Assembly (NCBI GenBank): GCA_964608725.1
Contig: CAZSPB010000003.1
Span: 55,645-119,644, forward strand
Origin: an uncultured archaeon
GTDB lineage: Archaea; Aenigmatarchaeota; Aenigmatarchaeia; Aenigmatarchaeales; Aenigmatarchaeaceae
DNA length: 64,000 nucleotides
Reading direction: 5' to 3'
This document shows, piece by piece, positions 1 to 54,214 of this stretch (its first letter is position 1; every line of letters starts with the position of its first letter). The notes beneath the pieces are model-generated. The model was not told the origin of the DNA. It saw only the letters and a program-made list of their open reading frames with translations, and ran no database searches. A program made the position numbers and the translations under genes.

Positions 1-1635
1 CTTACTATAGCTGGAGCAGGAACCAGACTTATCTGGTATCCAAGAAAAGCAGCCTTCAGAGCTGGAGAAGTAAATTTTGATCAATGGGATGACACTAATA
101 TTGGATGGACCTCAGTTGCAATGGGATACAATACGAAAGCTAGTGGAAGCAGTGCTGTGGCCTTAGGTCAAGGTACAACTGCTAGTGGAACGAGTTCAAC
201 AGCTTTAGGAGGTTATAGCACTGCTAGTGGAATAGCTTCAACTGCAATAGGAAATGGTGCTCAGGCTACAGGTTCTTATTCAGTGGCTTTAGGTGGGAAT
301 AATCCTCGTGCTACTAATTACGGTGCAATTGCAATTGGAAATGATGTCACTGCTAGTGGTCAATTTGCATATGTTATTGGTAAGGGAGCAGGTAGCGGAT
401 CCAATGCTCTCATCAATGATATACAAGACTCACTAATGATTGGTTTTAATAGTAATATTCCTACTTTATTTATTGGGCCAAGTAGTGGTTTAGAGACTAC
501 TGGTAATGTCGGTATTGGAACAGCTAGTCCAAAATCAAAGTTAGATGTTTCTGGGGACATAACACTTAGTGGGACTGCAAGAAAAATATACTTTGGTGTT
601 GCAGGAGAAAATGGACCTCATGGATTAAATTTCTCTAATGAGCTCTTCGTATTCTATAGGACTTCTCCTAACAATCTTGAGTTTGAACATTCGGATGGAA
701 CTGATATCTTAGTTATTGATAGGGATGGAAAAAGGGTCGGTATTGGGACGAACACTCCTGATCCGTATGTTGGTTTGGATATAAGGAATTCTGAACCTCT
801 TGGAAATAGAGGACAGATCATAGCTGATACGTATTTGCTCAGAAATAAGACAGGCTTAGCGTACGTTCCAAGTGATACTGGAGGTTGGATAGATGTTTAT
901 GAAGATAATTTAAACTTAAACTTAATGCATGCTATAAGTGGAAAAGGTATTTCATTTAACATCCCAGGCGGTGTTGGCGGCGTCACAAGAATGTTTATTA
1001 GATCGGATGGTAACGTCGGTATAGGGACAACGAGTCCACAATCTCCATTACATGTTGAAAAGGACATAGATAATTGGGGTAGAATAGCAAGGTTCTATGA
1101 TCCTTCAATGGCTGTAGACGATAATATGGTGATTCACCTTGGAAAGAGTGATGGAGGTCCAGCAGCAGAGATAGGATTTACATACAAAGGGGATACATCA
1201 GATCAAAATATACTATTTCTAGGACATTATAATAACCCATACATAGTTAAGATAAGAAAGGATGGTAATGTATATGTAGAAGGCAATATCTACAAAACTG
1301 GAACTATAAGCTTTGTTCAAGATTATCCTGACCAACCAGGAAAGCAAATAGTATATGTAGCTTTGGAAGGTCCAGAAGCAGCTACTTATATTAGAGGAAC
1401 TGCCGAATGTAAAGGTGTAGCAACTATTCAATTCCCAGAGCATTTCAAATTAGTAACTAGTAAAGAGGGGTTAACTGCTCAACTAACACCGAGAGGTAAA
1501 CCTAACAATCTCTTCATAATAAACTTGAGCAACGAAAAGTTAGTAGTTGGTTGTAGTGAAGAAGGAACTTTCGATTATTTCGTTCAAGGAACAAGAGTTG
1601 GTTATGAGGATTTTAATCCAATAAAGACAAAATAG
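1..1635 (+). CDS. Partial (5'-truncated by window edge) surface/adhesin-like protein with N-terminal Hep_Hag/YadA-head-like repeats followed by a beta-rich C-terminal domain
   Basis: The frame is open from base 1 with no stop before the M at 121. Repeated 'S.A.G..S.A.G / SVA(L/M)G' units and 'WDxxNIGW' resemble Hep_Hag-type fibre/adhesin repeats. Confidence 0.45.
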   Translation, partial: LTIAGAGTRLIWYPRKAAFRAGEVNFDQWDDTNIGWTSVAMGYNTKASGSSAVALGQGTTASGTSSTALGGYSTASGIASTAIGNGAQATGSYSVALGGNNPRATNYGAIAIGNDVTASGQFAYVIGKGAGSGSNALINDIQDSLMIGFNSNIPTLFIGPSSGLETTGNVGIGTASPKSKLDVSGDITLSGTARKIYFGVAGENGPHGLNFSNELFVFYRTSPNNLEFEHSDGTDILVIDRDGKRVGIGTNTPDPYVGLDIRNSEPLGNRGQIIADTYLLRNKTGLAYVPSDTGGWIDVYEDNLNLNLMHAISGKGISFNIPGGVGGVTRMFIRSDGNVGIGTTSPQSPLHVEKDIDNWGRIARFYDPSMAVDDNMVIHLGKSDGGPAAEIGFTYKGDTSDQNILFLGHYNNPYIVKIRKDGNVYVEGNIYKTGTISFVQDYPDQPGKQIVYVALEGPEAATYIRGTAECKGVATIQFPEHFKLVTSKEGLTAQLTPRGKPNNLFIINLSNEKLVVGCSEEGTFDYFVQGTRVGYEDFNPIKTK

Positions 1636-5281: not shown

Positions 5282-5848
5282 TTAAAGAATGTTAAAGCTT
5301 TTTAAAAATCTCCTTATTTTCTTAAAATCTTTCTCCATTTTTTCTTTAATTTTTGGAAATCTCATTGCAGCAGAAGGATGAAAAGTTGGAATAAAAATGA
5401 TACCGTTTTTCTTAATAATTTTTCCATGTAATTTTGATATTTTTGCTTTTTCATCTATCAAAGCCTTTAAAGCAGTATTTCCCAAAAGGACAATTACTTT
5501 AGGCTTAATTATCTCAATTTGTTTTTTTGTATGAAGCATACCATGCCTTATTTCTTTTATGTTTGGAGCTCTTTTTCCAGGATAATACTTTACAGGAGAT
5601 GTTATGAAAACTTTTTCTCTTTTTATTCCTATTGAATTAAGCATTTTTGTTAAGAATTTCCCCGCTCTCCCAATAAAAGGCCTTCCAACTTTGCTTTCTT
5701 CTATTCCAGGTGCTTCACCAATGAACATAACTTTAGCATTTGGATCGCCTTCTCCTGGAACAGGCAATCCATATTTATTTTTCCTACATTCTTTACATTT
5801 CTTTATTTCATCAGCTATTTTTTCTAAAGCTCTCTTCTTATCAGACAT
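5282..5848 (-). CDS. udg: Uracil-DNA glycosylase, family 4
   Basis: 'PGEGDPNAKVMFIGEAPG' family-4 UDG motif, with Cys residues upstream that fit Fe-S cluster ligands. Confidence 0.7.
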   Translation of the reverse strand: MSDKKRALEKIADEIKKCKECRKNKYGLPVPGEGDPNAKVMFIGEAPGIEESKVGRPFIGRAGKFLTKMLNSIGIKREKVFITSPVKYYPGKRAPNIKEIRHGMLHTKKQIEIIKPKVIVLLGNTALKALIDEKAKISKLHGKIIKKNGIIFIPTFHPSAAMRFPKIKEKMEKDFKKIRRFLKSFNIL

Positions 5849-6557
5849 ACTTTTTCAGTCCAGGTTTTGGTAAATTTTCAGTATCTATTTCAACTAATTT
5901 TCTATTTATAGTGAAACAAACGTTAAAGACTGGAATAGAATCAACAAAAGCTAAAGGTATTCCATAGTGTGCATGTCCATGAACAGCAAAAGTTGGCTTT
6001 GTCTTAATAAGAACTTTCTCAAGTTTTTTACTCCCTAAGCCACCATAAACTCTAGGATCTTCACCTTTTAATGTTTTATAAGTTGGTGAATAATGAGTAA
6101 GTAGAATTTTTATATCAGTTTTCAAATTTTTTAGTAAAATTTCTATTTTCTTTATCCTTTCTTTGTAAATGTCTTTAATCCCTGGTATGTGAGATGATTG
6201 CCACCAAGTAGGGACATCTAAAGAACCTCTAGAACCAACTATTCCAACTTTTTTATTTTTTATTTTTAAAACTATACTTTCATCATTCAAAAACTTTATT
6301 CTCTTTTTGCAAACTTTCTTTATCTCATCTATATCTTCATCAAACTCTCTGTTTCCAAAAACAGCAACTATTGGACACTTCCACTTCCTTAATTTTATAA
6401 AATCTAATATTAGGCCATACAATTCAGGAGAACGAAATTCGTACATATCTCCAGCAAAAAGCAAAAGATCTGGTTCTTTTGATTCTCTAATCATTTTATA
6501 AAAAGGTTCTAAATCTACACCAAGAGGATCAAGATCTGAAATAGCTTTGACAATCAT
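5841..6557 (-). CDS. Calcineurin-like metallophosphoesterase
   Basis: 'GDMYEF', 'GNREFD' and 'HGHAHYG' metallophosphoesterase motifs. At 238 aa it is too short to be Mre11. Confidence 0.55.
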   Translation of the reverse strand: MIVKAISDLDPLGVDLEPFYKMIRESKEPDLLLFAGDMYEFRSPELYGLILDFIKLRKWKCPIVAVFGNREFDEDIDEIKKVCKKRIKFLNDESIVLKIKNKKVGIVGSRGSLDVPTWWQSSHIPGIKDIYKERIKKIEILLKNLKTDIKILLTHYSPTYKTLKGEDPRVYGGLGSKKLEKVLIKTKPTFAVHGHAHYGIPLAFVDSIPVFNVCFTINRKLVEIDTENLPKPGLKKYV

Positions 6558-7608: not shown

Positions 7609-7692
7609 GGGCCGGTAGCTTAGCCTGGTGGAGCGCTCGGCTGATATTAAATAGAAACCGAGAGGTCGCAGGTTCAAATCCTGCCCGGCCCA
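7609..7692 (+). tRNA. Intron-containing tRNA, probably tRNA-Ile (GAU) with a ~10-nt intron after position 37
   Basis: 84 nt. Acceptor GGGCCGG/CCGGCCC, D-arm GCUU..GAGC, anticodon stem CUCGG/CCGAG enclosing 17 nt (CUGAUA + 10 nt + A), T-arm GCAGG-UUCAAAU-CCUGC. Confidence 0.6.
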
Positions 7693-17921: not shown

Positions 17922-18014
17922 TGGGCCCGGCCGGATTTGAACCGACGTTACCAGCACCCCATTCCAGCAGTTAAACTGTAGCTGGTGTCCTAGACCAAGC
18001 TGAACGACGGGCCC
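17922..18014 (-). tRNA. Intron-containing tRNA (93 nt; ~18-20-nt intron in the anticodon region; anticodon unresolved)
   Basis: Reverse complement gives acceptor GGGCCCG/CGGGCCC, D-arm GUUC..GGAC, anticodon stem CCAGC...GCUGG enclosing 25 nt, T-arm GUCGG-UUCAAAU-CCGGC, discriminator A. Confidence 0.6.
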
Positions 18015-21345: not shown

Positions 21346-22584
21346 ATGAGTTTTAATTATACTGTTAAAAAAGATAAAAATAACTTACTTCTTGAAATAT
21401 GTTTTTACCCTGATTGTTCATCTGAGCTTAAATTCTTAGATTATGTTCAATTTTCTGAATTAATTTTATATCCAGATAGAATAACAGATAATGTAAAAAT
21501 AAAGATACCTAAAGAAAATATTCCTGAAGATAAACAAGTTGGAATTAAAGTTAATGATAACTTTTATAATCTTCTTTTAGAAGTAAAAAAGAAGACTAGA
21601 AAGAAAAAAGTCGTAGAAGAAGTTGAAGAAAAAGTTGAAGAAGAGTACAAATGTCCAGAATGTGGAAGTGTTAACATAATTCAAGACTATGGCTTGCTTA
21701 CAGAAGGAGAAATTGTTTGTGGTGATTGCGGTCGCGTTATTGGGAGAGAAATAAATTATGGACCAGAATGGAGAGCATTTGATGATGAGCAAAGAAAGAA
21801 AAGAACAAGAGTTGGTGCTCCCATAACTTTTTCTATTCACGATAAAGGCTTGACAACAATAATAGACCCTAGAGATAGAGATCATTTTGGAAAAAAATTG
21901 GATGAAAAACAAAAAGAATTATTTTATAGGTTAAGAAAATGGCAAAAGAGGATTAGGATTAGCGATGGAAAAGAAAGGAGTATGAGCTATGCACTTTCAG
22001 ACATCCATAGAATATCTGAAATAAGTGGAAGTGTTGCAGAAGATGCATCAGTGCTTTTCAGAAAGGCAACTAAAAAAGGTATTATTAGAGGGAGAACGAT
22101 AGAAAATGTTGCTGCTGCTACTGTTTATTTAGCAAAACGAAGTAGAGGAATTCCTGTTACACTAGATGATGTTGCAAGTAAAGCTGTAGGAGAAGATTAT
22201 GCAGAAATAAAAAAAGCAAGAAAAGCTATAGCAAAAAATGTTAGAGAGTTACAGAAGCGTGGTATAATTAAGGATTTGAAAATACTTAAACCTGAGGATT
22301 ATGTTACCTACTTCATAGAAAAGCTTCCTGTTAAAAATAGGAAATTTGTTGAAGAATCTTCGATAAAAACTTTAAGAAAAATGAGAGAAAACTTAAAATT
22401 GAAAAAGCTATTGTTTAGAGATCCAAGAAGTCCCGCTGCTGCATTAATTTACATTTACGATAAAATTTCTGACGGTTATTTAACTCAAAGAGATATATCA
22501 GAAATTTCTGGTTTAACAGAAGTGACAATAAGAAATAGATACAAAGAACTTTTAGAAAACCTTGAAATTGCAGTTTACATATAA
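21346..22584 (+). CDS. tfb: Transcription initiation factor IIB (TFB) with a ~100-aa N-terminal extension
   Basis: Zn-ribbon 'CPECGS...CGDCGRV', B-reader/linker, and two cyclin-like repeats. The ribbon begins about 100 aa into the ORF. Confidence 0.8.
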   Translation: MSFNYTVKKDKNNLLLEICFYPDCSSELKFLDYVQFSELILYPDRITDNVKIKIPKENIPEDKQVGIKVNDNFYNLLLEVKKKTRKKKVVEEVEEKVEEEYKCPECGSVNIIQDYGLLTEGEIVCGDCGRVIGREINYGPEWRAFDDEQRKKRTRVGAPITFSIHDKGLTTIIDPRDRDHFGKKLDEKQKELFYRLRKWQKRIRISDGKERSMSYALSDIHRISEISGSVAEDASVLFRKATKKGIIRGRTIENVAAATVYLAKRSRGIPVTLDDVASKAVGEDYAEIKKARKAIAKNVRELQKRGIIKDLKILKPEDYVTYFIEKLPVKNRKFVEESSIKTLRKMRENLKLKKLLFRDPRSPAAALIYIYDKISDGYLTQRDISEISGLTEVTIRNRYKELLENLEIAVYI

Positions 22585-24425: not shown

Positions 24426-24586
24426 TGCGGAGGGCAGGATTTGAACCTGCGAAGGGACTAACCCACAGGATTTCTTTCATCTTTTGATCAAAACTTAAGA
24501 GCCAAGTCTTAAGTATCGCACAGCTGTCCTGCGCCTTTGCTCATGTTCGCTATGCGAACATATTGACCTGGCTTGGCTACCTCCGC
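24426..24586 (-). tRNA. Type-II-like tRNA (Leu/Ser class) with ~85-100 nt of intervening sequence; exact intron positions unresolved
   Basis: Reverse complement: acceptor GCGGAGG/CCUCCGC, discriminator A, D-arm 'UAGCCAAGCCAGGUCAA', T-arm GCAGG-UUCAAAU-CCUGC, and a variable-arm-like hairpin GGG-UUAGU-CCC. Confidence 0.5.
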
Positions 24587-45915: not shown

Positions 45916-46635
45916 TTACATTTTTTTCGATAATTCTTCTAAAGCTGTAATAATATAATTTATTTCCATTCGAATTTGCTCCATGTAAATGTTAGCCAAA
46001 AAATTATGTGCGGCAGCATCACCTAGAAATTTACTTCTTTTCAAATGAATTGCCGTCTTTGGCGAAATATAAGGGGTGCCATCTTTTCCTTTTTCTCTTG
46101 AGGCTATATTAATCATTTTTTCTAACCCAACAATTTTTTTATGATTTGATGGGTCATTTAACTTTTCAATCATACCTTGTTTTGCAAATGCAAAGTAAAT
46201 GGACTTTTCTATTATTCTTCTTAAAAGAAATGCTGTACAATTGCCACTTTTATTCCAGACTAAATTCAAATCGTTAAAATCTATCTTAAATTTTTCTCCA
46301 AGCTTTCTGAGTAGTTTCTTTGGAAAAAAAGCAAAAAAGGTATTTGGAGTATTTCGTTCTTTAAACTTAACCCAAGAACCATACCATATTCTTTTACCAT
46401 CAACAAATTCGGTTTTTACTATTCCATTTTTTATAAAAGGTTTCATATAGGTAATAACTATACTACTTTTTATTCTTTTTAGCGTGGCGTTCCTTAACTT
46501 TTTAGCAATTTCGCAAGAGTACATTGGTGTATGAAGTATCTCATTTTTAAGAATAAGATTCTTAATTTCATTATATAGAGAGTCTTTTTTAAATTTCATC
46601 TTCATTAATTTTTTTCTAGCTTCTGCGAATTGCAT
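45916..46635 (-). CDS. Hypothetical protein (accessory; possible HEPN/Abi-like C-terminal region)
   Basis: 239 aa; 'RSKFLGDAAAHN' loosely resembles an R-x(n)-H HEPN-type motif. Last gene of a 3-gene minus-strand operon. Confidence 0.25.
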   Translation of the reverse strand: MQFAEARKKLMKMKFKKDSLYNEIKNLILKNEILHTPMYSCEIAKKLRNATLKRIKSSIVITYMKPFIKNGIVKTEFVDGKRIWYGSWVKFKERNTPNTFFAFFPKKLLRKLGEKFKIDFNDLNLVWNKSGNCTAFLLRRIIEKSIYFAFAKQGMIEKLNDPSNHKKIVGLEKMINIASREKGKDGTPYISPKTAIHLKRSKFLGDAAAHNFLANIYMEQIRMEINYIITALEELSKKM

Positions 46636-47042
46636 TATTTCACTTTTTTAAAATTATTTTCAACATATTTTTCTCCAGAATTAGTGAGTTGAAATGCCTT
46701 AAACCCCTCTTTTTCGCCAACTTCCATTATATAGCCTTTTCTTATATTCAAATTTATTTTATCATTAATATTAAGGGGAATTTTTTCCCTTGCCTCTATG
46801 AAGATTTTTTTAAGATCATTCTTATTAAAAGGTGTTAATCCCTTATATTTTTCTAGATAATAACCCATTGCTAAGGTTTTGTCGGTATCACTGTTAGGAT
46901 TTTTTTCATTTAAAAATTCTCTTATTGATAGAGGTTTAATCACAGGGGTAGATTTTCTGAATAAACCTTCTAATTCTGATAATCTCTTTTCATGATTTTT
47001 TAAAATAATTTTAATTCTTTCTATCTCATCCATAAAAACCAC
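46635..47042 (-). CDS. Hypothetical protein (middle gene of 3-gene operon)
   Basis: 135 aa; start/stop overlaps with its neighbours. Confidence 0.3.
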   Translation of the reverse strand: MVFMDEIERIKIILKNHEKRLSELEGLFRKSTPVIKPLSIREFLNEKNPNSDTDKTLAMGYYLEKYKGLTPFNKNDLKKIFIEAREKIPLNINDKINLNIRKGYIMEVGEKEGFKAFQLTNSGEKYVENNFKKVK

Positions 47043-47045
47043 CGT

Positions 47046-47321
47046 CTAATTTAATTTTTTTACCCTTTTATATCTCCATTTTTCTTGTCCTATCCTCTGT
47101 TCTTTAGATAGTTTTTCACGTTCTAACCCTATGGAAGAATCTCTACACATCAATGTTAACTGCCTATTAACCGCACCAATTTGTCTACCTTTGAGAGTGA
47201 ACCCACGAGCTGATAATTTTTTAATGACTTCGATTGAGGTTTTAGGTGTATCAAAAAAACCATCATCCACCAATTCTTTCAAAATTTTCTTTATCTTCAT
47301 ATTATATTTAATACAGCTCAA
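47046..47321 (-). CDS. Small winged-helix transcription regulator
   Basis: 'SIEVIKKLSARGFTLKGRQIGAVNRQL' wHTH-like. Confidence 0.35.
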   Translation of the reverse strand: MSCIKYNMKIKKILKELVDDGFFDTPKTSIEVIKKLSARGFTLKGRQIGAVNRQLTLMCRDSSIGLEREKLSKEQRIGQEKWRYKRVKKLN

Positions 47322-47362
47322 GGGTATTTAAACTTTTCTATTCCTTGTTTTATTATGTGAAT

Positions 47363-47449
47363 TATGAAAAAATCAATATAAATCAAGAGAAAATCGGGAC
47401 AGTCAATTAAATTTGCATATTTTTAATGAGTTACTTATTAATGAAAAAG
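47363..47449 (+). repeat. Direct repeat copy 1 (87 bp; frameshifted duplicate of the 5' end of the gene at 47642)
   Basis: Matches 47641-47725 except for one extra A in the 'ATGAAAAAATC' run. Confidence 0.8.
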
Positions 47450-47640
47450 CGAAGAAATTTTGTTTGTTAAGAATTTTTTGATAAAAAATATGAATTTTTA
47501 ACGTGAAAAAAGTTTAAGTATATTCTACATCTGAAAAAAACATAATGTTCATAATTTCCTTTTTAATTTGTATCGAAAAACTTATTAAGAATATTTAAAG
47601 ATACAGTAAAATTTAAATATTTATTATTTATTATAAATAT

Positions 47641-47725
47641 TATGAAAAATCAATATAAATCAAGAGAAAATCGGGACAGTCAATTAAATTTGCATATTTT
47701 TAATGAGTTACTTATTAATGAAAAG
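47641..47725 (+). repeat. Direct repeat copy 2 (85 bp; includes the start codon and first ~28 codons of the regulator gene)
   Basis: Identical to 47363-47449 apart from a 1-nt indel. Confidence 0.8.
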
Positions 47726-48085
47726 GAATTGTTAATTCAACTTGTCGAAAGGTTGAAAAATAAAGTTAAGTTCTTAGAAGGATCTTCATATCCCATTTTT
47801 CTAATTGACATGAATAGACTAGTAAATGAGGAAAAAATTGCTTTATGGTTAATTACAAAATTTATCTTAAAAAAAATTGGTGCTGTTGAAAATGAAGATA
47901 TGTCTATTGATGAATTAGAGGAGAAATGTAGATTAAGTAGAAAAATTATTATAGCAAGGCTAAAAGACTTAAGAGATAAAAAAATAATTGAAAGGACTAA
48001 AGGAATTAACTTTAGGATAAATTTACCTGCTGCAATTTTCATTTTAGATAAAATAGATAAGAGACTTGAAAAGGAAATTAACTAG
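47642..48085 (+). CDS. HTH DNA-binding protein (putative regulator at the head of the R-M/defence block)
   Basis: 'MSIDELEEKCRLSRKIIIARLKDLRDKKIIER' HTH-like segment. Confidence 0.4.
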   Translation: MKNQYKSRENRDSQLNLHIFNELLINEKELLIQLVERLKNKVKFLEGSSYPIFLIDMNRLVNEEKIALWLITKFILKKIGAVENEDMSIDELEEKCRLSRKIIIARLKDLRDKKIIERTKGINFRINLPAAIFILDKIDKRLEKEIN

Positions 48086-48183
48086 AGGTTTTTTAATCTT
48101 ACTTCCAATTTTTCCTAAAGATTATTATTAAGATTATAAATAAATATTTCTTTTACAAAGAGATTATTAAAAGTGAAATAAAT

Positions 48184-48993
48184 ATGGAAGAAAAAGTAAA
48201 TGATTTAGATCCGAAAAAATGGAGAGAATATGAAAAGGAAGGATTACAATTTTTTACAGTATGGGATACACCCGAAAGAGATCCTTATAATTGGACAAAT
48301 TACACAATTCATGGAAATTCACCAGTAGAAATAGTAAGACAATGTATTCTTAGATTTTCAAGGAAAAATGACTTAGTTTTAGACCCATTCGTTGGCTCAG
48401 GAACAACTTTAATTGTATGCGCAAGAGTAAAAAGAAGAGGTATAGGAATAGAAATAAACCCTAATATAGTAAAGATAATTAAAAAAAATTTTGCACAAAA
48501 GGGATTAGAAAAAGAATATAATGAGTGGTTAACAAAGCAAAAAATTATTTGTGATGATGCAAGAAATCTTAAGAATTATGTGAAGGATAATTCTGTAGAT
48601 ATGGTATTTACACATCCGCCTTACTGGGATTTGATTAATTATAGTAAAGAATATGGGATGGTTAAAGGGGATTTATCGAATATGAGTTTTGAAGAATTTT
48701 TGAATGGCATAGAAGAAGTTTTTCAACATATTTACGATGTACTTAAAAAAAATAAATTCTTTTGTGTTTTAATTGGGGATGATTTCAAAGAAGGAGGAAA
48801 AGTTATCCCTCTTGATTACTATTTAACAAAAATCGGATTAAATGTCGGTTTTGAATTTTATACAAAAATAATCAAAATAACTAGAGAGGCAACTTCAAGA
48901 AGAAACCAGATTAATATTATGAAGTATAGATCTTTAAGAAACAACTTTTTTATATGCATTCATGATTTTGTTCTTATATTTAAAAAGGTATGA
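48184..48993 (+). CDS. DNA amino-methyltransferase (N6-adenine or N4-cytosine), gamma-class motif order
   Basis: Motif I 'LDPFVGSGTT' precedes motif IV 'THPPYWD'. Confidence 0.7.
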   Translation: MEEKVNDLDPKKWREYEKEGLQFFTVWDTPERDPYNWTNYTIHGNSPVEIVRQCILRFSRKNDLVLDPFVGSGTTLIVCARVKRRGIGIEINPNIVKIIKKNFAQKGLEKEYNEWLTKQKIICDDARNLKNYVKDNSVDMVFTHPPYWDLINYSKEYGMVKGDLSNMSFEEFLNGIEEVFQHIYDVLKKNKFFCVLIGDDFKEGGKVIPLDYYLTKIGLNVGFEFYTKIIKITREATSRRNQINIMKYRSLRNNFFICIHDFVLIFKKV

Positions 48994-49949
48994 AAATGAA
49001 ACATGAAGAAGTTGTAGAAGTAGTGGCAGAATGGTTCAAATCCAACCCAAAAGTAATTTTGGTAGGTAAATGTTCCGGAGACTTTCCTGAACCTGATATA
49101 TATGCACAATTTAAAGATAATAGTATAGGGTTTGTAGAATGTAAACCAAGTGATGTTGGAGGTAGAGAATATTTAACTGGCTTTGGGCAAGCAATAGCTT
49201 ATGCCACACTTTCTAACTACTCTTTTCTAGCGATACCAGAAAAAGAGATGAAAAAGTATAAAAAATATTTTTGGGTTGAATTAATAGGTTTATTAGCAGT
49301 AAGAGAAAATGGCATTGTTAAAGTAATAAGAAAGGCTAAAAAGATAGAACTAAAATCAGTCCATGAAAGAAGGACCCGGGCTTATGGATATTATAGAGAC
49401 CTTCATCCTTATGAAATTCATCAGATCCTAGAATCAATCACTCATAGTAAAAATGAATCTTCAAGAAAGAAAGAAATATGGAAAACCATTTGTAAATTGA
49501 GAAACATAAAAAGTATGAAACAGAGGAATGCATGGATACTTAATGTAAAACTCCTTTTAAGAGATCTTGGTTTGGTTAATTATGATCTATCTCTCACAGA
49601 AAAAGGATTTTATTTACTACAAGTTGGTAGATCAAGAAATAAGAAATTATATCTCTCTGAGTTAACACGATGTTTTCTTATAAACGCCAATTATCTCGAA
49701 TTGTTAGCATTAATTCAAAGGTTAAATGACATATATACAGCATTTAGTACTGTAAAAAAATTTAAAATGTTATTAGCAAAAGAAATATTAAAAGAGAAGT
49801 TAGCCACAACACAGACAAATATAATGAGAGATTTACAAGATATACCTAGAATATTGAAAGAACTCGGTCTCATAAATGACTGGCAAAAGCATGGATTTGG
49901 ATACAGATATACTATTAATTGGGATAAAATAACCAAATTGCTAAAATAA
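48990..49949 (+). CDS. Candidate Type II restriction endonuclease (PD-ExK)
   Basis: Start overlaps the MTase stop (ATGA). N-terminal 'EPDIY...GFVECK' PD-(D/E)xK motif. Confidence 0.45.
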   Translation: MKMKHEEVVEVVAEWFKSNPKVILVGKCSGDFPEPDIYAQFKDNSIGFVECKPSDVGGREYLTGFGQAIAYATLSNYSFLAIPEKEMKKYKKYFWVELIGLLAVRENGIVKVIRKAKKIELKSVHERRTRAYGYYRDLHPYEIHQILESITHSKNESSRKKEIWKTICKLRNIKSMKQRNAWILNVKLLLRDLGLVNYDLSLTEKGFYLLQVGRSRNKKLYLSELTRCFLINANYLELLALIQRLNDIYTAFSTVKKFKMLLAKEILKEKLATTQTNIMRDLQDIPRILKELGLINDWQKHGFGYRYTINWDKITKLLK

Positions 49950-49969
49950 TCACATATAGACGAAATTCT

Positions 49970-50254
49970 TTATTTAATCTTAAAGGGTAAGCCTGCTTCT
50001 TTTATTCTTCTTAATATCTCTTCCCTAGATGGCTTTTTATCTCTCAAAGCTTTCTCTAATTCCTTTCTTGTTTTTCCACAATTAGAACACTTCTCGGATA
50101 AAATCTTGTATTTTTCCCTAGTTCTGTAAATTTTTCTTTTCGTTCCTGCTGCAGAAGAATGTGTAGTTGCAAATTGTAAAACTGAAGGTTTATACAAAAC
50201 CTTTATTGTTTCTTTCTTGCAAAAAGGACATTCTATTGTTAAAATTTCAGGCAT
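49970..50254 (-). CDS. Small Zn-ribbon protein
   Basis: 'CPFCKK...CSNCGK' CxxC...CxxC. Confidence 0.4.
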   Translation of the reverse strand: MPEILTIECPFCKKETIKVLYKPSVLQFATTHSSAAGTKRKIYRTREKYKILSEKCSNCGKTRKELEKALRDKKPSREEILRRIKEAGLPFKIK

Positions 50255-50301
50255 AGTATCTATCTATATGTTTATAGAAACTTATAATTTAATGTGATCT
50301 T

Positions 50302-50790
50302 ATGGATTTTGAAGATCTAACAAAATTAATTTTCAGCGAAATGAAATCTGTGTTAGAAAGCAACCAAGGTTTATATATCTTCGCAAAAGAAAGAGCTAAA
50401 TTTGAAGGTTGGCTAAAAGTAGAAATATGTAAAATTTTATCAAAACAGTTCGAAGATGTTATTCCTGAAAAAGATAGGATTGATATTATATTTCAAAATT
50501 GGGTAATCGAATTAAAAACAATCAATACTAACTATAGGTACAAAAATGTTAAGAGAAAAAACCGGCCGATAACCAGAAATATACAGAGACTACTTGATGA
50601 TATTAAAAAATTGAAATCTATTAATTATACTAATAAAGCCGTTTTATTTATCGTTTTCCCAACAAACCACAATAATCAAAAATGGCAAAAACACTTAAGG
50701 AAAGTTTCTAAATTACTAAGAAAAATAGAATATAGTGATTTTAAGTTCAGAGATCGAATTCCTGGAGTTATTTATTTTGGTTTGGTATAA
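50302..50790 (+). CDS. Small PD-(D/E)xK nuclease-fold protein (Mrr/Hjc-like core)
   Basis: Helix 'WLKVEICKILSKQF' followed by 'DRIDIIF...WVIELKT' (D...E-L-K). Confidence 0.4.
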   Translation: MDFEDLTKLIFSEMKSVLESNQGLYIFAKERAKFEGWLKVEICKILSKQFEDVIPEKDRIDIIFQNWVIELKTINTNYRYKNVKRKNRPITRNIQRLLDDIKKLKSINYTNKAVLFIVFPTNHNNQKWQKHLRKVSKLLRKIEYSDFKFRDRIPGVIYFGLV

Positions 50791-50832
50791 ACTGCCAAAT
50801 CAGATATTATTAATTTATTAAAGCCTATTGTT

Positions 50833-51480
50833 TTGTGTGAAGAATATAAAATAAAATCTCCTATAAATATAGATATGATAACATTCGAAGAACAAATTGT
50901 AAAATCTTATTATAATTTAAAGAATTACTTCACAATAGAGAACATTCCTTTTTCTGCTAGAAAGAAAAGCAAAGGTGGGAAGGGAAGAGGAGAAATAGAT
51001 TTGATTGCAGTCAAATTAGATAAAAATAGTGGAATAATAAAAGACATAATTCATATTGAAATAACAGCTTCAATAGTTGAAAAATTTCCATTCGTATCCA
51101 AATATAAAGGTAGTGACGAGATTTATAAACTTCTTAAAAAATTTTTCATAAACAATTCAGATGAGAAACTTAAAGAATTTTACTTAGGTAAATGGAGATA
51201 TCAATTTGTAACCAGTAGGTTTAGAAAAAATATAGAGATTCTTTTAAGAAAAAGGTTAAAATACTGGGGCGCAAAAATTACATATCTAAAAGAAATCAAT
51301 GGAGAACTCTTTACTAGAATAGAATATGATTCGAAGTGTAAGGAAATAGAGATAACTCCATTCACCAAAATTTTGGGAGAGTTCAAAGAAAAAATGAAAG
51401 ATAAAACTGAACATTACTTATCTACGAGTATAAGAGCAATGCAATGGTGGAAAATTATTGAAAGTACCAAAGCCATTTAA
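50833..51480 (+). CDS. Mrr-cat/Hjc-like restriction-endonuclease-fold protein with an E-x-T variant of the E-x-K motif
   Basis: 'SKGGKGRGEIDLIAV...IIHIEITAS' parallels the Mrr/Hjc pattern 'G..DL(I/V)A...IE(V)K', but with T in place of K. Confidence 0.4.
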   Translation: MCEEYKIKSPINIDMITFEEQIVKSYYNLKNYFTIENIPFSARKKSKGGKGRGEIDLIAVKLDKNSGIIKDIIHIEITASIVEKFPFVSKYKGSDEIYKLLKKFFINNSDEKLKEFYLGKWRYQFVTSRFRKNIEILLRKRLKYWGAKITYLKEINGELFTRIEYDSKCKEIEITPFTKILGEFKEKMKDKTEHYLSTSIRAMQWWKIIESTKAI

Positions 51481-51546
51481 TAAAAAATCTAAACCGAAAA
51501 ACTAGAGATTTAGAAAATAACTAGATCCCTAAAGGTTTCAAATTTC

Positions 51547-53025
51547 TCACATAAACGCTCTCACATCTCTCCTTCTCTGCTCTCTTTCTTCAACAGCCTC
51601 CTTCCACTCTTTCAAAACATCAGGATCCTTTCCCATCAACTTTCCCAAAAACTTGTCTATTTTAACTAAAGCTGGAATTTTAACCATCGGCCCTAGAACA
51701 ATTGCTTCACCAACGTTCAAAGATGGCAAATGTTCCATCAACTCATTGCTTAAAGCTTCACTAGCAGCCTGAACATGTCTTTGATCTCCAGGTTCAACCA
51801 ATTTTAAAATTATCATGTTATTAACTTGTGATAACGCATCAGCATCCAAAGCTTTTGGCCTTTGACTAACTAAGCACAAACCTACTCCAAATTTTCTTCC
51901 CTCTCTTGCTATCCTGCTTATGTAATATTTTGATAAAGTACTCCTGTTAGCAGGAGCCAAAATATGAGCTTCCTCAAGAACAATAAAAATAGGTGTTTTC
52001 AATCCTTCTCCTTTTCTCCTATAATTCTTCCTCTCTTCAAGTATCTTTCTTAAGCAATGACTAACAATAACATCTGCCCCATCCTCATCTATCAAACCAA
52101 GATCAATTATGTTAACCTTTCCATAGCTTATTCTATCTATTATATCTGAAACTTTCATATCAAATATCGAGGCCCTATACTCAAGCATGTCATCAAGCTT
52201 ATTCTTAACAGCAACTATCCTATTCTTATCAGACTTATAACTCTCATTTTCCAAAAGATTATCAAGCTCTTTTTGCATTGCATCAAAGAACCCTTCTAAG
52301 CTCATTAAACCTCCTCTTTTCCTGAACTCTTTCTCTGCTTTTTGATAAGCCATTCTAAAATATCTATATTGGATATAAGCATCACTCCATATGTTTGCAA
52401 GGCCAGCTGCTTCACTTATTGACAAATTCAATGGACTTATCTTTGTTTCTATTATATTTTTCTCTCCATTTGGAAAGTTTGCATCCACATACTCAGAATG
52501 CATATCAAATATTAAAACAGTTCCATTGTATTTCAAAAGGCCATTGACTATGACAGCAACAGCATTGCTCTTTCCTGCTCCAGTTAAAGCAAGAATGGAA
52601 AGATGCCTGTTAACTATCTTATTTGCGTCAATAAAAACAGGAACATCTTCCTGAGTTATCAAATTCCCTAACTTAACACCACTTTCTCCAAATATTTTTT
52701 TCAAAATTTCAGGATCAGCTTTCTTAACCTCTGTTCCTGGTGTTGGAGGTGTTCTAGGTATTTTTAGATTCTCAATATCACCAAGAATTTTGATAAAACC
52801 TTTTATGTAATACTCATCACCTTCTATTTCCTTTATCTTTTCAACAACTTTAGGGTCAAAGATATCATCTGTTATGCTAGGGCTTCCCCTAACTAAAGCT
52901 TCAATCATTCCAAGAACCTTTTTTCCATCATACTCAAGGATAACATATTCTCCAACTTTTGGCATTTTCTTTGAAACAAATTCAACTCTAGTTGGCAAAG
53001 CTTCTCCTATACACCTTCCAATCAT
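51547..53025 (-). CDS. herA: HerA-family (DUF87/FtsK-HerA) ATPase
   Basis: N-terminal HAS-barrel-like segment, Walker A 'LTGAGKSN', Walker B 'IFIVLEEAH'. Confidence 0.7.
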   Translation of the reverse strand: MIGRCIGEALPTRVEFVSKKMPKVGEYVILEYDGKKVLGMIEALVRGSPSITDDIFDPKVVEKIKEIEGDEYYIKGFIKILGDIENLKIPRTPPTPGTEVKKADPEILKKIFGESGVKLGNLITQEDVPVFIDANKIVNRHLSILALTGAGKSNAVAVIVNGLLKYNGTVLIFDMHSEYVDANFPNGEKNIIETKISPLNLSISEAAGLANIWSDAYIQYRYFRMAYQKAEKEFRKRGGLMSLEGFFDAMQKELDNLLENESYKSDKNRIVAVKNKLDDMLEYRASIFDMKVSDIIDRISYGKVNIIDLGLIDEDGADVIVSHCLRKILEERKNYRRKGEGLKTPIFIVLEEAHILAPANRSTLSKYYISRIAREGRKFGVGLCLVSQRPKALDADALSQVNNMIILKLVEPGDQRHVQAASEALSNELMEHLPSLNVGEAIVLGPMVKIPALVKIDKFLGKLMGKDPDVLKEWKEAVEEREQRRRDVRAFM

Positions 53026-54050
53026 AATACCTCCCTTCCTGTTCTCTCAAAAAAACCAAAGGCCTTCACGATCTTTTCCATTTCCTTATTGCTTATTAAA
53101 ACATCATTGTGTGCTTTCTTCAACAAGTAAGGATAACCTTCAACACATATCCTTTTTATTTTTTCTAATAGCTTTTCAACATTACTAATTCTTTTAGGTA
53201 TTTCAAACTTTAAAACATTTCTTCTATCTTCTAGCCTGGCATAAAAAATTGTGAATTGAATGTTCCTGAAGAAATCATCTAATATAGGGAAGCTTCTCTT
53301 TAATCTAGCATCTATGCTACCGTAAATAGGAGATGAATAACCTTGTTTATGAGTTGATTTCTCGAATATTGCTATGTCAGGAATGTTTTCCTTGAAATAA
53401 TCTGTTGCTTGTGAGGTCTTTGCTATAGCCACTATTTTATCATTGTTCTTCAACAACTCTTTCATGCATAACAAATGCTCTAAATACTCTAAATAGCTCT
53501 GGGCCTCTGCTTTTTCTTCAAATCTTTCTTCTATTTCCTTGAAGAATTTTCTCGAAGATATTTCTATTCCATTTGAAATTTCTAGCTTAGGTAAGAATTC
53601 TTTTTTTATTTCATTTTTAACCTCAGATTTTGGATTCAACCTGAATGGTAATGGCCTTATTATGTCTCCTATTATTGAACCATCTAGCAAAGCAATATCA
53701 GCATGCTTTAAAGCTTTTAAAAGAGCTTTTGTTTCGAATATGTGCATGTAAAACCTTAACCTTTCTTTAGTGAATTTATAGGGGTATAAAATATCAATAT
53801 CGCAAGCTTTAATTGATTTCAATTTTTCATCAAATACTAATGCTTCTGAAGTCACAGCATAGATAGTGAAACCTCTAAACTCTTTGAAGTTGTAACTTCC
53901 ATCACAAGCTGCTATAGGAACCTTTTCACCTTCTTTTATCTCCTTTTCTATCCATAGCTTTTTTGCATCAAAACTTTTTAAATCAAAATTTACTTTATCA
54001 AGAATTTCCTTCTTTTTTTGAGTGAGTTTTTCAGCTATGAAGTTGAACAT
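53022..54050 (-). CDS. nurA: NurA-like nuclease
   Basis: N-terminal 'IAACDGSYNF' NurA motif I (catalytic Asp). A 342-aa size is typical of NurA, and the stop overlaps the herA start. Confidence 0.55.
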   Translation of the reverse strand: MFNFIAEKLTQKKKEILDKVNFDLKSFDAKKLWIEKEIKEGEKVPIAACDGSYNFKEFRGFTIYAVTSEALVFDEKLKSIKACDIDILYPYKFTKERLRFYMHIFETKALLKALKHADIALLDGSIIGDIIRPLPFRLNPKSEVKNEIKKEFLPKLEISNGIEISSRKFFKEIEERFEEKAEAQSYLEYLEHLLCMKELLKNNDKIVAIAKTSQATDYFKENIPDIAIFEKSTHKQGYSSPIYGSIDARLKRSFPILDDFFRNIQFTIFYARLEDRRNVLKFEIPKRISNVEKLLEKIKRICVEGYPYLLKKAHNDVLISNKEMEKIVKAFGFFERTGREVL

Positions 54051-54214
54051 ATTTCCTTATAAGATTTTCAGAAATAAAAGCTTACTTTGACTAGAAAAAT
54101 CTTTTTCTAAAAAAATTATAAGTTGTTTCTGAAGCTAGTTATCACTTTCTTACCACCTAGAGTAGTTAGAAAATCTGAAGGTAACTTCAACAAAACTTCT
54201 AGAAGGGTGAGTGA

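Follow-up and report, generated by a model that had tools for sequence, protein, structure and literature searches.

A probable housekeeping HerA-NurA pair, uncoupled from mre11-rad50, beside a variable genome boundary in Aenigmarchaeota

Two overlapping genes for the NurA nuclease and the HerA DNA translocase are present in the stretch of DNA analyzed here, 64,000 nucleotides of contig CAZSPB010000003.1 from an uncultured archaeon (assembly GCA_964608725.1), hereafter the window. Judging from the sequence, this pair is most likely the canonical housekeeping archaeal HerA-NurA helicase-nuclease of an Aenigmarchaeota (DPANN) archaeon, positioned beside a variable boundary. The two proteins are intact and under strong constraint; they are presumably active and presumably serve as the housekeeping resection machine of the organism. 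The pair would act either with an unlinked Mre11-Rad50 complex or, as proposed for Deinococcus, without Mre11-Rad50, and the neighboring restriction-modification (R-M) genes appear to form an island that was acquired separately, at a variable boundary of the genome.

The first-pass annotation of this region described a NurA gene and a HerA gene that overlap at their start and stop codons, with the motifs AACDGS, GAGKS and VLEEAH and a HAS barrel. This description is borne out in full: the open reading frames (ORFs) are exact and overlap by 4 nt, and the motifs and the barrel were recovered by sequence reading and in Pfam searches. The features of the pair are as follows.

nurA: 53022-54050, minus strand; 342 aa, RNase H-like 5'-3' nuclease, gene 1 of the apparent operon
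herA: 51547-53025, minus strand; 492 aa, HAS-barrel and RecA-like hexameric DNA translocase, gene 2 of the apparent operon
NurA motif AACDGS: 53895-53912, minus strand; from sequence reading
NurA catalytic triad codons: D50 at 53901-53903, E106 at 53733-53735, D123 at 53682-53684, minus strand; from alignment to Saccharolobus (Sulfolobus) solfataricus NurA
NurA K211 at 53418-53420 and Y306 at 53133-53135, minus strand; aligned to S. solfataricus NurA K202 and Y298
HerA Walker A, GAGKS with K152: 52567-52581, minus strand; aligned to the S. solfataricus HerA Walker A segment with K154
HerA Walker B, VLEEAH with E351/E352: 51964-51981, minus strand; from sequence reading and the alignment to the S. 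solfataricus HerA structure 4D2I
nurA/herA junction: 53022-53035, minus strand; GGGAGG at 53030-53035, a 4-nt spacer, then the herA ATG
TTTATT, TATA-box-like candidate archaeal promoter: 54073-54078, minus strand, 28 nt upstream of the nurA ATG; proposed from sequence reading
Oligo-T runs, candidate archaeal terminator: T5 at 51497-51501 and T6 at 51482-51487, minus strand; proposed from sequence reading

The nurA product matches the Pfam NurA family (3.4e-36), and the herA product consists of a HAS-barrel (5.4e-16, residues 2-86), the DUF87/HerA central domain (8.2e-47, residues 117-328) and HerA_C (residues 344-443), with weak FtsK_SpoIIIE and T4SS matches besides these main domains. The lysine of the S. 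solfataricus Walker A segment is the residue replaced in the K154A mutant described previously (PMC3326311), and an arginine-containing segment, REGRKFG (residues 374-380), is identical in the two HerA proteins. At the junction, the herA ATG and the nurA TGA share 4 nt as ATGA (53022-53025), and a junction of the same form is found in all related loci; this is the usual signature of translational coupling, and the two proteins are probably co-translated. The oligo-T runs lie 46-65 nt past the herA stop codon, within the 66-nt gap that precedes a convergent ORF; given these runs and the TTTATT element upstream of nurA, nurA-herA looks like a self-contained bicistronic operon.

The active site of NurA is complete. 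D50, E106 and D123 align to D58, E116 and D133 of S. solfataricus NurA, the catalytic residues of that protein, and K211 and Y306 align to its conserved K202 and Y298 (PMC3326311); thus, the D-E-D site is intact, and all five residues are kept, which answers the call of the first-pass annotation to check the conservation of the NurA catalytic residues. In S. solfataricus NurA, I295 and F300 dock HerA (PMC3326311), and the V303 and Y308 found at these positions of the hydrophobic docking patch are conservative replacements. The best match of NurA in the PDB is S. solfataricus NurA (2YGK, 1.1e-24), and the best-scoring family model is NCBIfam NurA_Sulf (153.8 bits, residues 5-338). Against a hidden Markov model (HMM) of NurA proteins from operons that include mre11 and rad50, it scores 339.9 bits, within the range of the operon-linked orthologs themselves (131-618 bits). 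Among the PADLOC defense models, NurA has no credible match, the sole one being Cas2b (E=0.0031).

HerA, likewise, is of the repair type. The best-scoring model is the repair model HerA_Thermprot of NCBIfam (497.6 bits, residues 2-481), and the general repair HerA model of the same collection gives 293 bits, compared with 152.6 and 108.9 bits for two anti-phage HerA models with cut-offs of 850 and 800. S. solfataricus HerA (4D2I) aligns over the full length (residues 2-478, 388.9 bits), whereas the solved defense HerAs, from DUF4297-HerA and Sir2-HerA, align over the C-terminal ATPase part only, at 78-121 bits (maximum 120.8). Against the HMM of operon-linked HerAs, the window protein scores 765 bits (range of the orthologs, 562-998), and it is 55-63% identical to HerAs of Asgard archaea, Methanobacteria, Methanomicrobiales and Thermoproteota. 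Among 77 HerA sequences, 152 columns reach a conservation of 90% or more; the window protein agrees with 149 of these, and no column sets the window clade apart from the rest, that is, there are no clade-specific fixed substitutions. In neighbor-joining trees, the window HerA nests among operon-linked HerAs; the HerA and NurA trees are largely congruent, the sequences are coherent by taxon, and the branch lengths of the clade are unremarkable. No relatives of this HerA were found in viral contigs. The matches of HerA to the PADLOC HerA and mad8 models (best 202 bits) are at the level of homology. A MADS- or Dnd-like system, suggested by matches to mad8, mad2 and DndH, was considered and rejected because these matches reflect weak core-domain similarity only and the mad8 match turns up in control loci as well.

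The pair lacks the usual link to mre11-rad50. The first-pass annotation noted that no mre11 or rad50 gene is adjacent, and this is confirmed by HMM scans: models of Mre11 and Rad50 derived from operon-linked proteins found no match at E<1e-5 in the whole 64-kb window and, with filters off and E<10, no relic scoring above 9.4 bits. The possibility that a 238-aa ORF with a Metallophos domain (5841-6557) is a degenerate Mre11 was rejected, given its 8.8 bits on the Mre11 HMM and the lack of a PDB match; this calcineurin-like phosphoesterase overlaps a uracil-DNA glycosylase gene, with which it forms a pair (5282-6557, minus strand).

To place this arrangement in context, we ran HMMs built from three annotated four-gene operons over every fetched locus. 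All of the approximately 15 distinct loci outside the window clade, from Baldrarchaeia, Asgardarchaeum, Jordarchaeia, Methanobacterium, Methanobrevibacter, Methanobinarius, Thermofilaceae and other Thermoproteota, have the gene order nurA-herA-mre11-rad50. One of these, from a Methanobrevibacter metagenome-assembled genome (MAG) (L010, 11534-19731), has approximately 8 kb between herA and mre11, with ORFs of 969 and 988 aa, neither of which has a PADLOC match; thus, the herA/mre11 junction can split in other lineages too. In the neighbor-joining trees, the window groups with sequences from two named Aenigmatarchaeota MAGs and from several metagenomes, and all six distinct loci of this clade (the window, L002/L003, L020, L021, L022/L023 and L038-L040) contain nurA-herA only, with no adjacent mre11-rad50. 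Because the clade consistently shows this organization and the window holds no relic, uncoupling from mre11-rad50 is a trait of the lineage; a single event at the base of the clade would be the simplest account. The lone pair is therefore unusual relative to its closest homologs in other phyla, all of which are in four-gene operons. Previously, the linkage of nurA-herA to mre11-rad50 has been described for 'most' hyperthermophilic archaea, not all (PMC2288612), and the herA-nurA operon of Deinococcus has been described as working without Mre11-Rad50 (PMC12977600). The supplement of a study on Aenigmarchaeota (PMC8407114), which we searched for Rad50, Mre11, SbcC and SbcD, is uninformative on this question because it apparently lists only putatively transferred genes, with core genes marked in few MAGs.

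Two further observations concern the relatives of the pair. In the closest sub-clade, an ORF of 184-190 aa in the same orientation as herA overlaps that gene at its 3' end (L002:11442-12014 and L022:2835-3386); the two copies share 68% identity and show a weak Peptidase_M50 match (E=0.0017), and the ORF, which is absent from the window, is possibly a third operon gene in that sub-clade. Separately, a bin labeled 'uncultured bacterium' encodes a HerA that is 46% identical to that of the window (L018:9980-11509), with no NurA, Mre11 or Rad50 within 10 kb.

The two flanks of the pair differ. Upstream of nurA are core genes, namely those for an archaeal S-adenosylmethionine synthetase and Cbf5 and a SecY-Adk-L15 cluster; downstream of herA is an accessory block with the following features.

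Accessory block: 45916-51480; downstream of herA, outside the operon, GC content 0.273
Type II N4/N6 DNA methyltransferase: 48184-48993; PADLOC MTase_II, 2.5e-46
Putative PD-ExK endonuclease, 319 aa: 48990-49949; PD...ExK-like motif

With a GC content of 0.31 for nurA and 0.352 for herA, against approximately 0.31 for the window, the pair is core-like in composition, compared with the lower-GC block adjacent to it. The methyltransferase stop codon overlaps the start of the 319-aa ORF by ATGA, and the block also contains small ORFs resembling winged helix-turn-helix (wHTH) proteins and three ORFs of 94, 162 and 215 aa without assignment. The accessory-block ORFs without assignment gave nothing significant in Pfam (E<=1), PHROGs or the PDB. 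The statement of the first-pass annotation that the pair stands next to R-M and nuclease-fold genes accordingly holds for the R-M genes, with the type II N4/N6 methyltransferase and the 319-aa ORF; the putative 'nuclease fold' of the neighbors has a basis at the level of motifs plus a sub-threshold NotI match (E=0.015), and AlphaFold models predicted from single sequences for the 215-aa and 319-aa neighbors, with a predicted local distance difference test score (pLDDT) of 37, are unusable. Within this lowest-GC block, the only notable repeat is an exact 80-nt direct repeat at 47368-47447 and 47645-47724, 277 nt apart; a 147-aa wHTH-like ORF (47642-48085) has the second copy as its 5' end, so that the start region of this ORF is duplicated upstream. 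An integrated element was considered as well, but att-like repeats flanking the low-GC block were looked for and none were found.

Three points weigh against the assignment of the pair as a housekeeping machine. First, both proteins score below the NCBIfam equivalog cut-offs (HerA, 497.6 vs 800; NurA, 153.8 vs 400). This shortfall is real, although expected given that the HerA_Thermprot and NurA_Sulf models are specific to Thermoproteota and Sulfolobales, respectively, and we therefore file the two proteins as members of the repair orthologous groups rather than as equivalogs. Second, conservation does not extend to the flanks, even in the closest relative, whose HerA is 76% identical (L002). 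The sole flanking gene common to the two loci is a 94-aa Zn-ribbon-like ORF with two CxxC pairs (49970-50254, minus strand), which is 57% identical to a 104-aa ORF (L002:13499-13813) and is in the opposite relative orientation. The first-pass annotation expected a housekeeping copy to cluster with canonical repair orthologs in conserved synteny across relatives; the clustering and the conservation of the pair are evident, whereas conserved flanking synteny is not.

Third, the distribution of R-M genes follows the pattern that is used to flag defense-linked genes. An R-M system or a DNA methyltransferase is located within approximately 3 kb of the pair in four of the six clade loci, and each is of a different type: the type II N4/N6 system in the window, a type I system with embedded KwaA/KwaB in L002, an N6_N4 methyltransferase 270 bp downstream of the pair in L020, and a C5 methyltransferase with a type II restriction endonuclease in L038. 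PADLOC, which reports many R-M matches on the clade flanks, found no R-M gene in the 15 out-of-clade loci (129 ORFs, approximately 261 kb) or in the first 40.7 kb of the window (54 ORFs). The Fisher test for 4/6 vs 0/15 gives p = 0.0025, for a small sample (4 to 6 evaluable lineages) that is taxon-confounded, with controls from other phyla; R-M systems have been reported to be common in Aenigmarchaeota (PMC8407114). In the R-M-free part of the window (1-40701), where no R-M methyltransferase model is matched, two ORFs match PADLOC mad2 (best 7.1e-25); these are probably RNA methyltransferases rather than defense genes. In L038 (7602-10004), orc1/cdc6 lies directly upstream of nurA but for a 92-aa ORF, and further upstream are an HhH-GPD glycosylase, the C5 methyltransferase with the type II restriction endonuclease, and a short ORF resembling an ATP-dependent ligase.

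The pattern of R-M genes is the argument for the possibility, which we consider unlikely, that a canonical enzyme has been recruited to restriction, such that HerA-NurA loads on the ends left where the neighboring R-M system cuts unmodified invading DNA and destroys that DNA, in the manner of RecBCD after restriction in bacteria, and the loss of linkage to mre11-rad50 reflects a shift to, or an added, restriction role. The association recurs in four independent lineages of the clade, each time with another type of system, is absent from the controls, and in three of the four lineages places the R-M genes downstream of herA, where other archaea carry mre11-rad50. The limits of the sample and the prevalence of R-M systems in this group of archaea, however, weaken the argument, and the R-M genes either run opposite to the pair or are separated from it by unrelated ORFs, with none conserved between loci, so that a boundary between core and variable regions fits the pattern equally well as a functional link. 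Moreover, HerA lacks clade-specific substitutions, and in L038 the nearest neighbors, Orc1/Cdc6 and the HhH-GPD glycosylase, make up a housekeeping DNA-metabolism context. It is an unlikely extension of the same idea that the uncoupled HerA-NurA is a fixed anchor for exchangeable R-M or defense cassettes and processively destroys foreign DNA that restriction has cut, as the archaeal equivalent of RecBCD; in a reduced DPANN genome, it might then also be the sole system for end resection.

Still less probable is another housekeeping role, in chromosome segregation or resolution (FtsK-like) or in the processing of replication forks, rather than in the resection of double-strand breaks. Such a role would explain the independence from Mre11-Rad50; HerA belongs to the HerA/FtsK superfamily and shows the weak FtsK_SpoIIIE and T4SS matches mentioned above, a cell-division role of archaeal HerA has been the subject of speculation (PMC12977600), and in L038 the pair is next to orc1/cdc6. 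That the NurA nuclease is intact and its docking patch conserved, however, favors a coupled nuclease function, and the adjacency to orc1/cdc6 is seen in one lineage only.

The first-pass annotation raised the question of whether this copy is the housekeeping resection machine or a HerA-based defense module. A dedicated anti-phage HerA-partner module of the Sir2-HerA/DUF4297-HerA type, with HerA as the scaffold and activator of a toxic effector that brings about abortive infection, is not supported. The homology-level PADLOC matches of HerA speak for it, as does the accessory neighborhood, which has R-M genes on one side and core genes on the other, but it is hardly credible given that the partner is NurA with an intact repair-type active site and no credible PADLOC match, rather than Sir2 or a DUF4297/Cap4-like nuclease, that HerA falls far below the anti-phage cut-offs and aligns with the solved defense HerAs in its ATPase part alone, and that the distribution is coherent with taxonomy and not patchy.

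The window is archaeal. It contains an archaeal signal recognition particle RNA, intron-containing tRNAs, aRF1 and TFB, and the named relatives of its SecY are almost all from Candidatus Aenigmarchaeota/Aenigmatarchaeota. The same holds for two named HerA relatives, one of them the closest. Three tRNA matches were obtained with Rfam and not with ARAGORN (7609-7692, 17922-18014 and 24426-24586), two of which, at 93 and 161 nt, are long, as would fit archaeal tRNAs with introns. The TFB homolog (21346-22584, plus strand; 412 aa) has an N-terminal extension of approximately 100 residues before the Zn-ribbon. The largest ORF encodes a 799-aa class I aminoacyl-tRNA synthetase, and a 504-aa ORF (121-1635, plus strand) contains YadA-head repeats, a motif of bacterial trimeric-autotransporter adhesins.

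Among the characterized systems, HerA-NurA of S. solfataricus (4D2I, 2YGK) is the closest parallel: the genes are adjacent, the Walker A, Walker B and REGRKFG segments of HerA are identical, and NurA aligns over residues 30-332 with D58, E116, D133, K202 and Y298 conserved and I295 and F300 conservatively replaced. Unlike the window, Sulfolobus co-transcribes these genes with mre11 and rad50, and the host of the window is a low-GC DPANN archaeon. The operons of Asgard archaea, Methanobacteria and Thermoproteota (L004-L019, L024-L037) share the nurA-herA order and the overlapping junction, encode HerAs that are 49-63% identical to that of the window and, judged by HMM scores and the tree, belong to one orthologous group with it, but carry mre11 and rad50 right after herA (in one case with the 8-kb insert). 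The Thermococcus kodakarensis/Pyrococcus-type complex (9X1L) is of the same type, with a HerA score of 228.8 bits and a NurA match over the N-terminal catalytic half in which the Asp and Glu residues align; HerA (592 aa) and NurA (443 aa) of Thermococcales, however, exceed the window proteins in length and are far more distant, whereas the window proteins belong to the short, Sulfolobus-like type. Sir2-HerA and DUF4297-HerA (8J4U/8SU9 and 8XAU) resemble the pair in the hexameric ATPase core of the HerA family and in the two-gene layout of ATPase and effector, and differ from it in the nature of the effector and in the low HerA scores given above. By description, the stand-alone NurA-HerA pair of Deinococcus radiodurans, a minimal end-resection machine without Mre11-Rad50 (PMC12977600), is similar in organization, although it is bacterial and is considered a horizontal acquisition from archaea.

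By analogy with the solved Sulfolobus and Thermococcus complexes, the canonical housekeeping function favored here would proceed as follows. HerA would form a hexameric ring with the HAS barrel as a cap, and a NurA dimer would dock on this ring via the hydrophobic patch beside the NurA active site. ATP hydrolysis by HerA would then drive duplex DNA into the narrow channel of NurA, where the D-E-D metal site would digest one or both strands, yielding resected ends for RadA-mediated homologous recombination.

With the pair described here, the known HerA-NurA family gains a well-conserved representative from the DPANN archaea. The comparison of loci also shows that the four-gene nurA-herA-mre11-rad50 layout reaches mesophilic Methanobacteria and Asgard archaea and has been lost as a unit in one clade of Aenigmarchaeota. 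If this clade has no Mre11-Rad50 at all, it would represent a natural archaeal case of Mre11-Rad50-independent resection. The recurrent adjacency of R-M genes, if it holds genome-wide, would tie a core repair machine to restriction in archaea.

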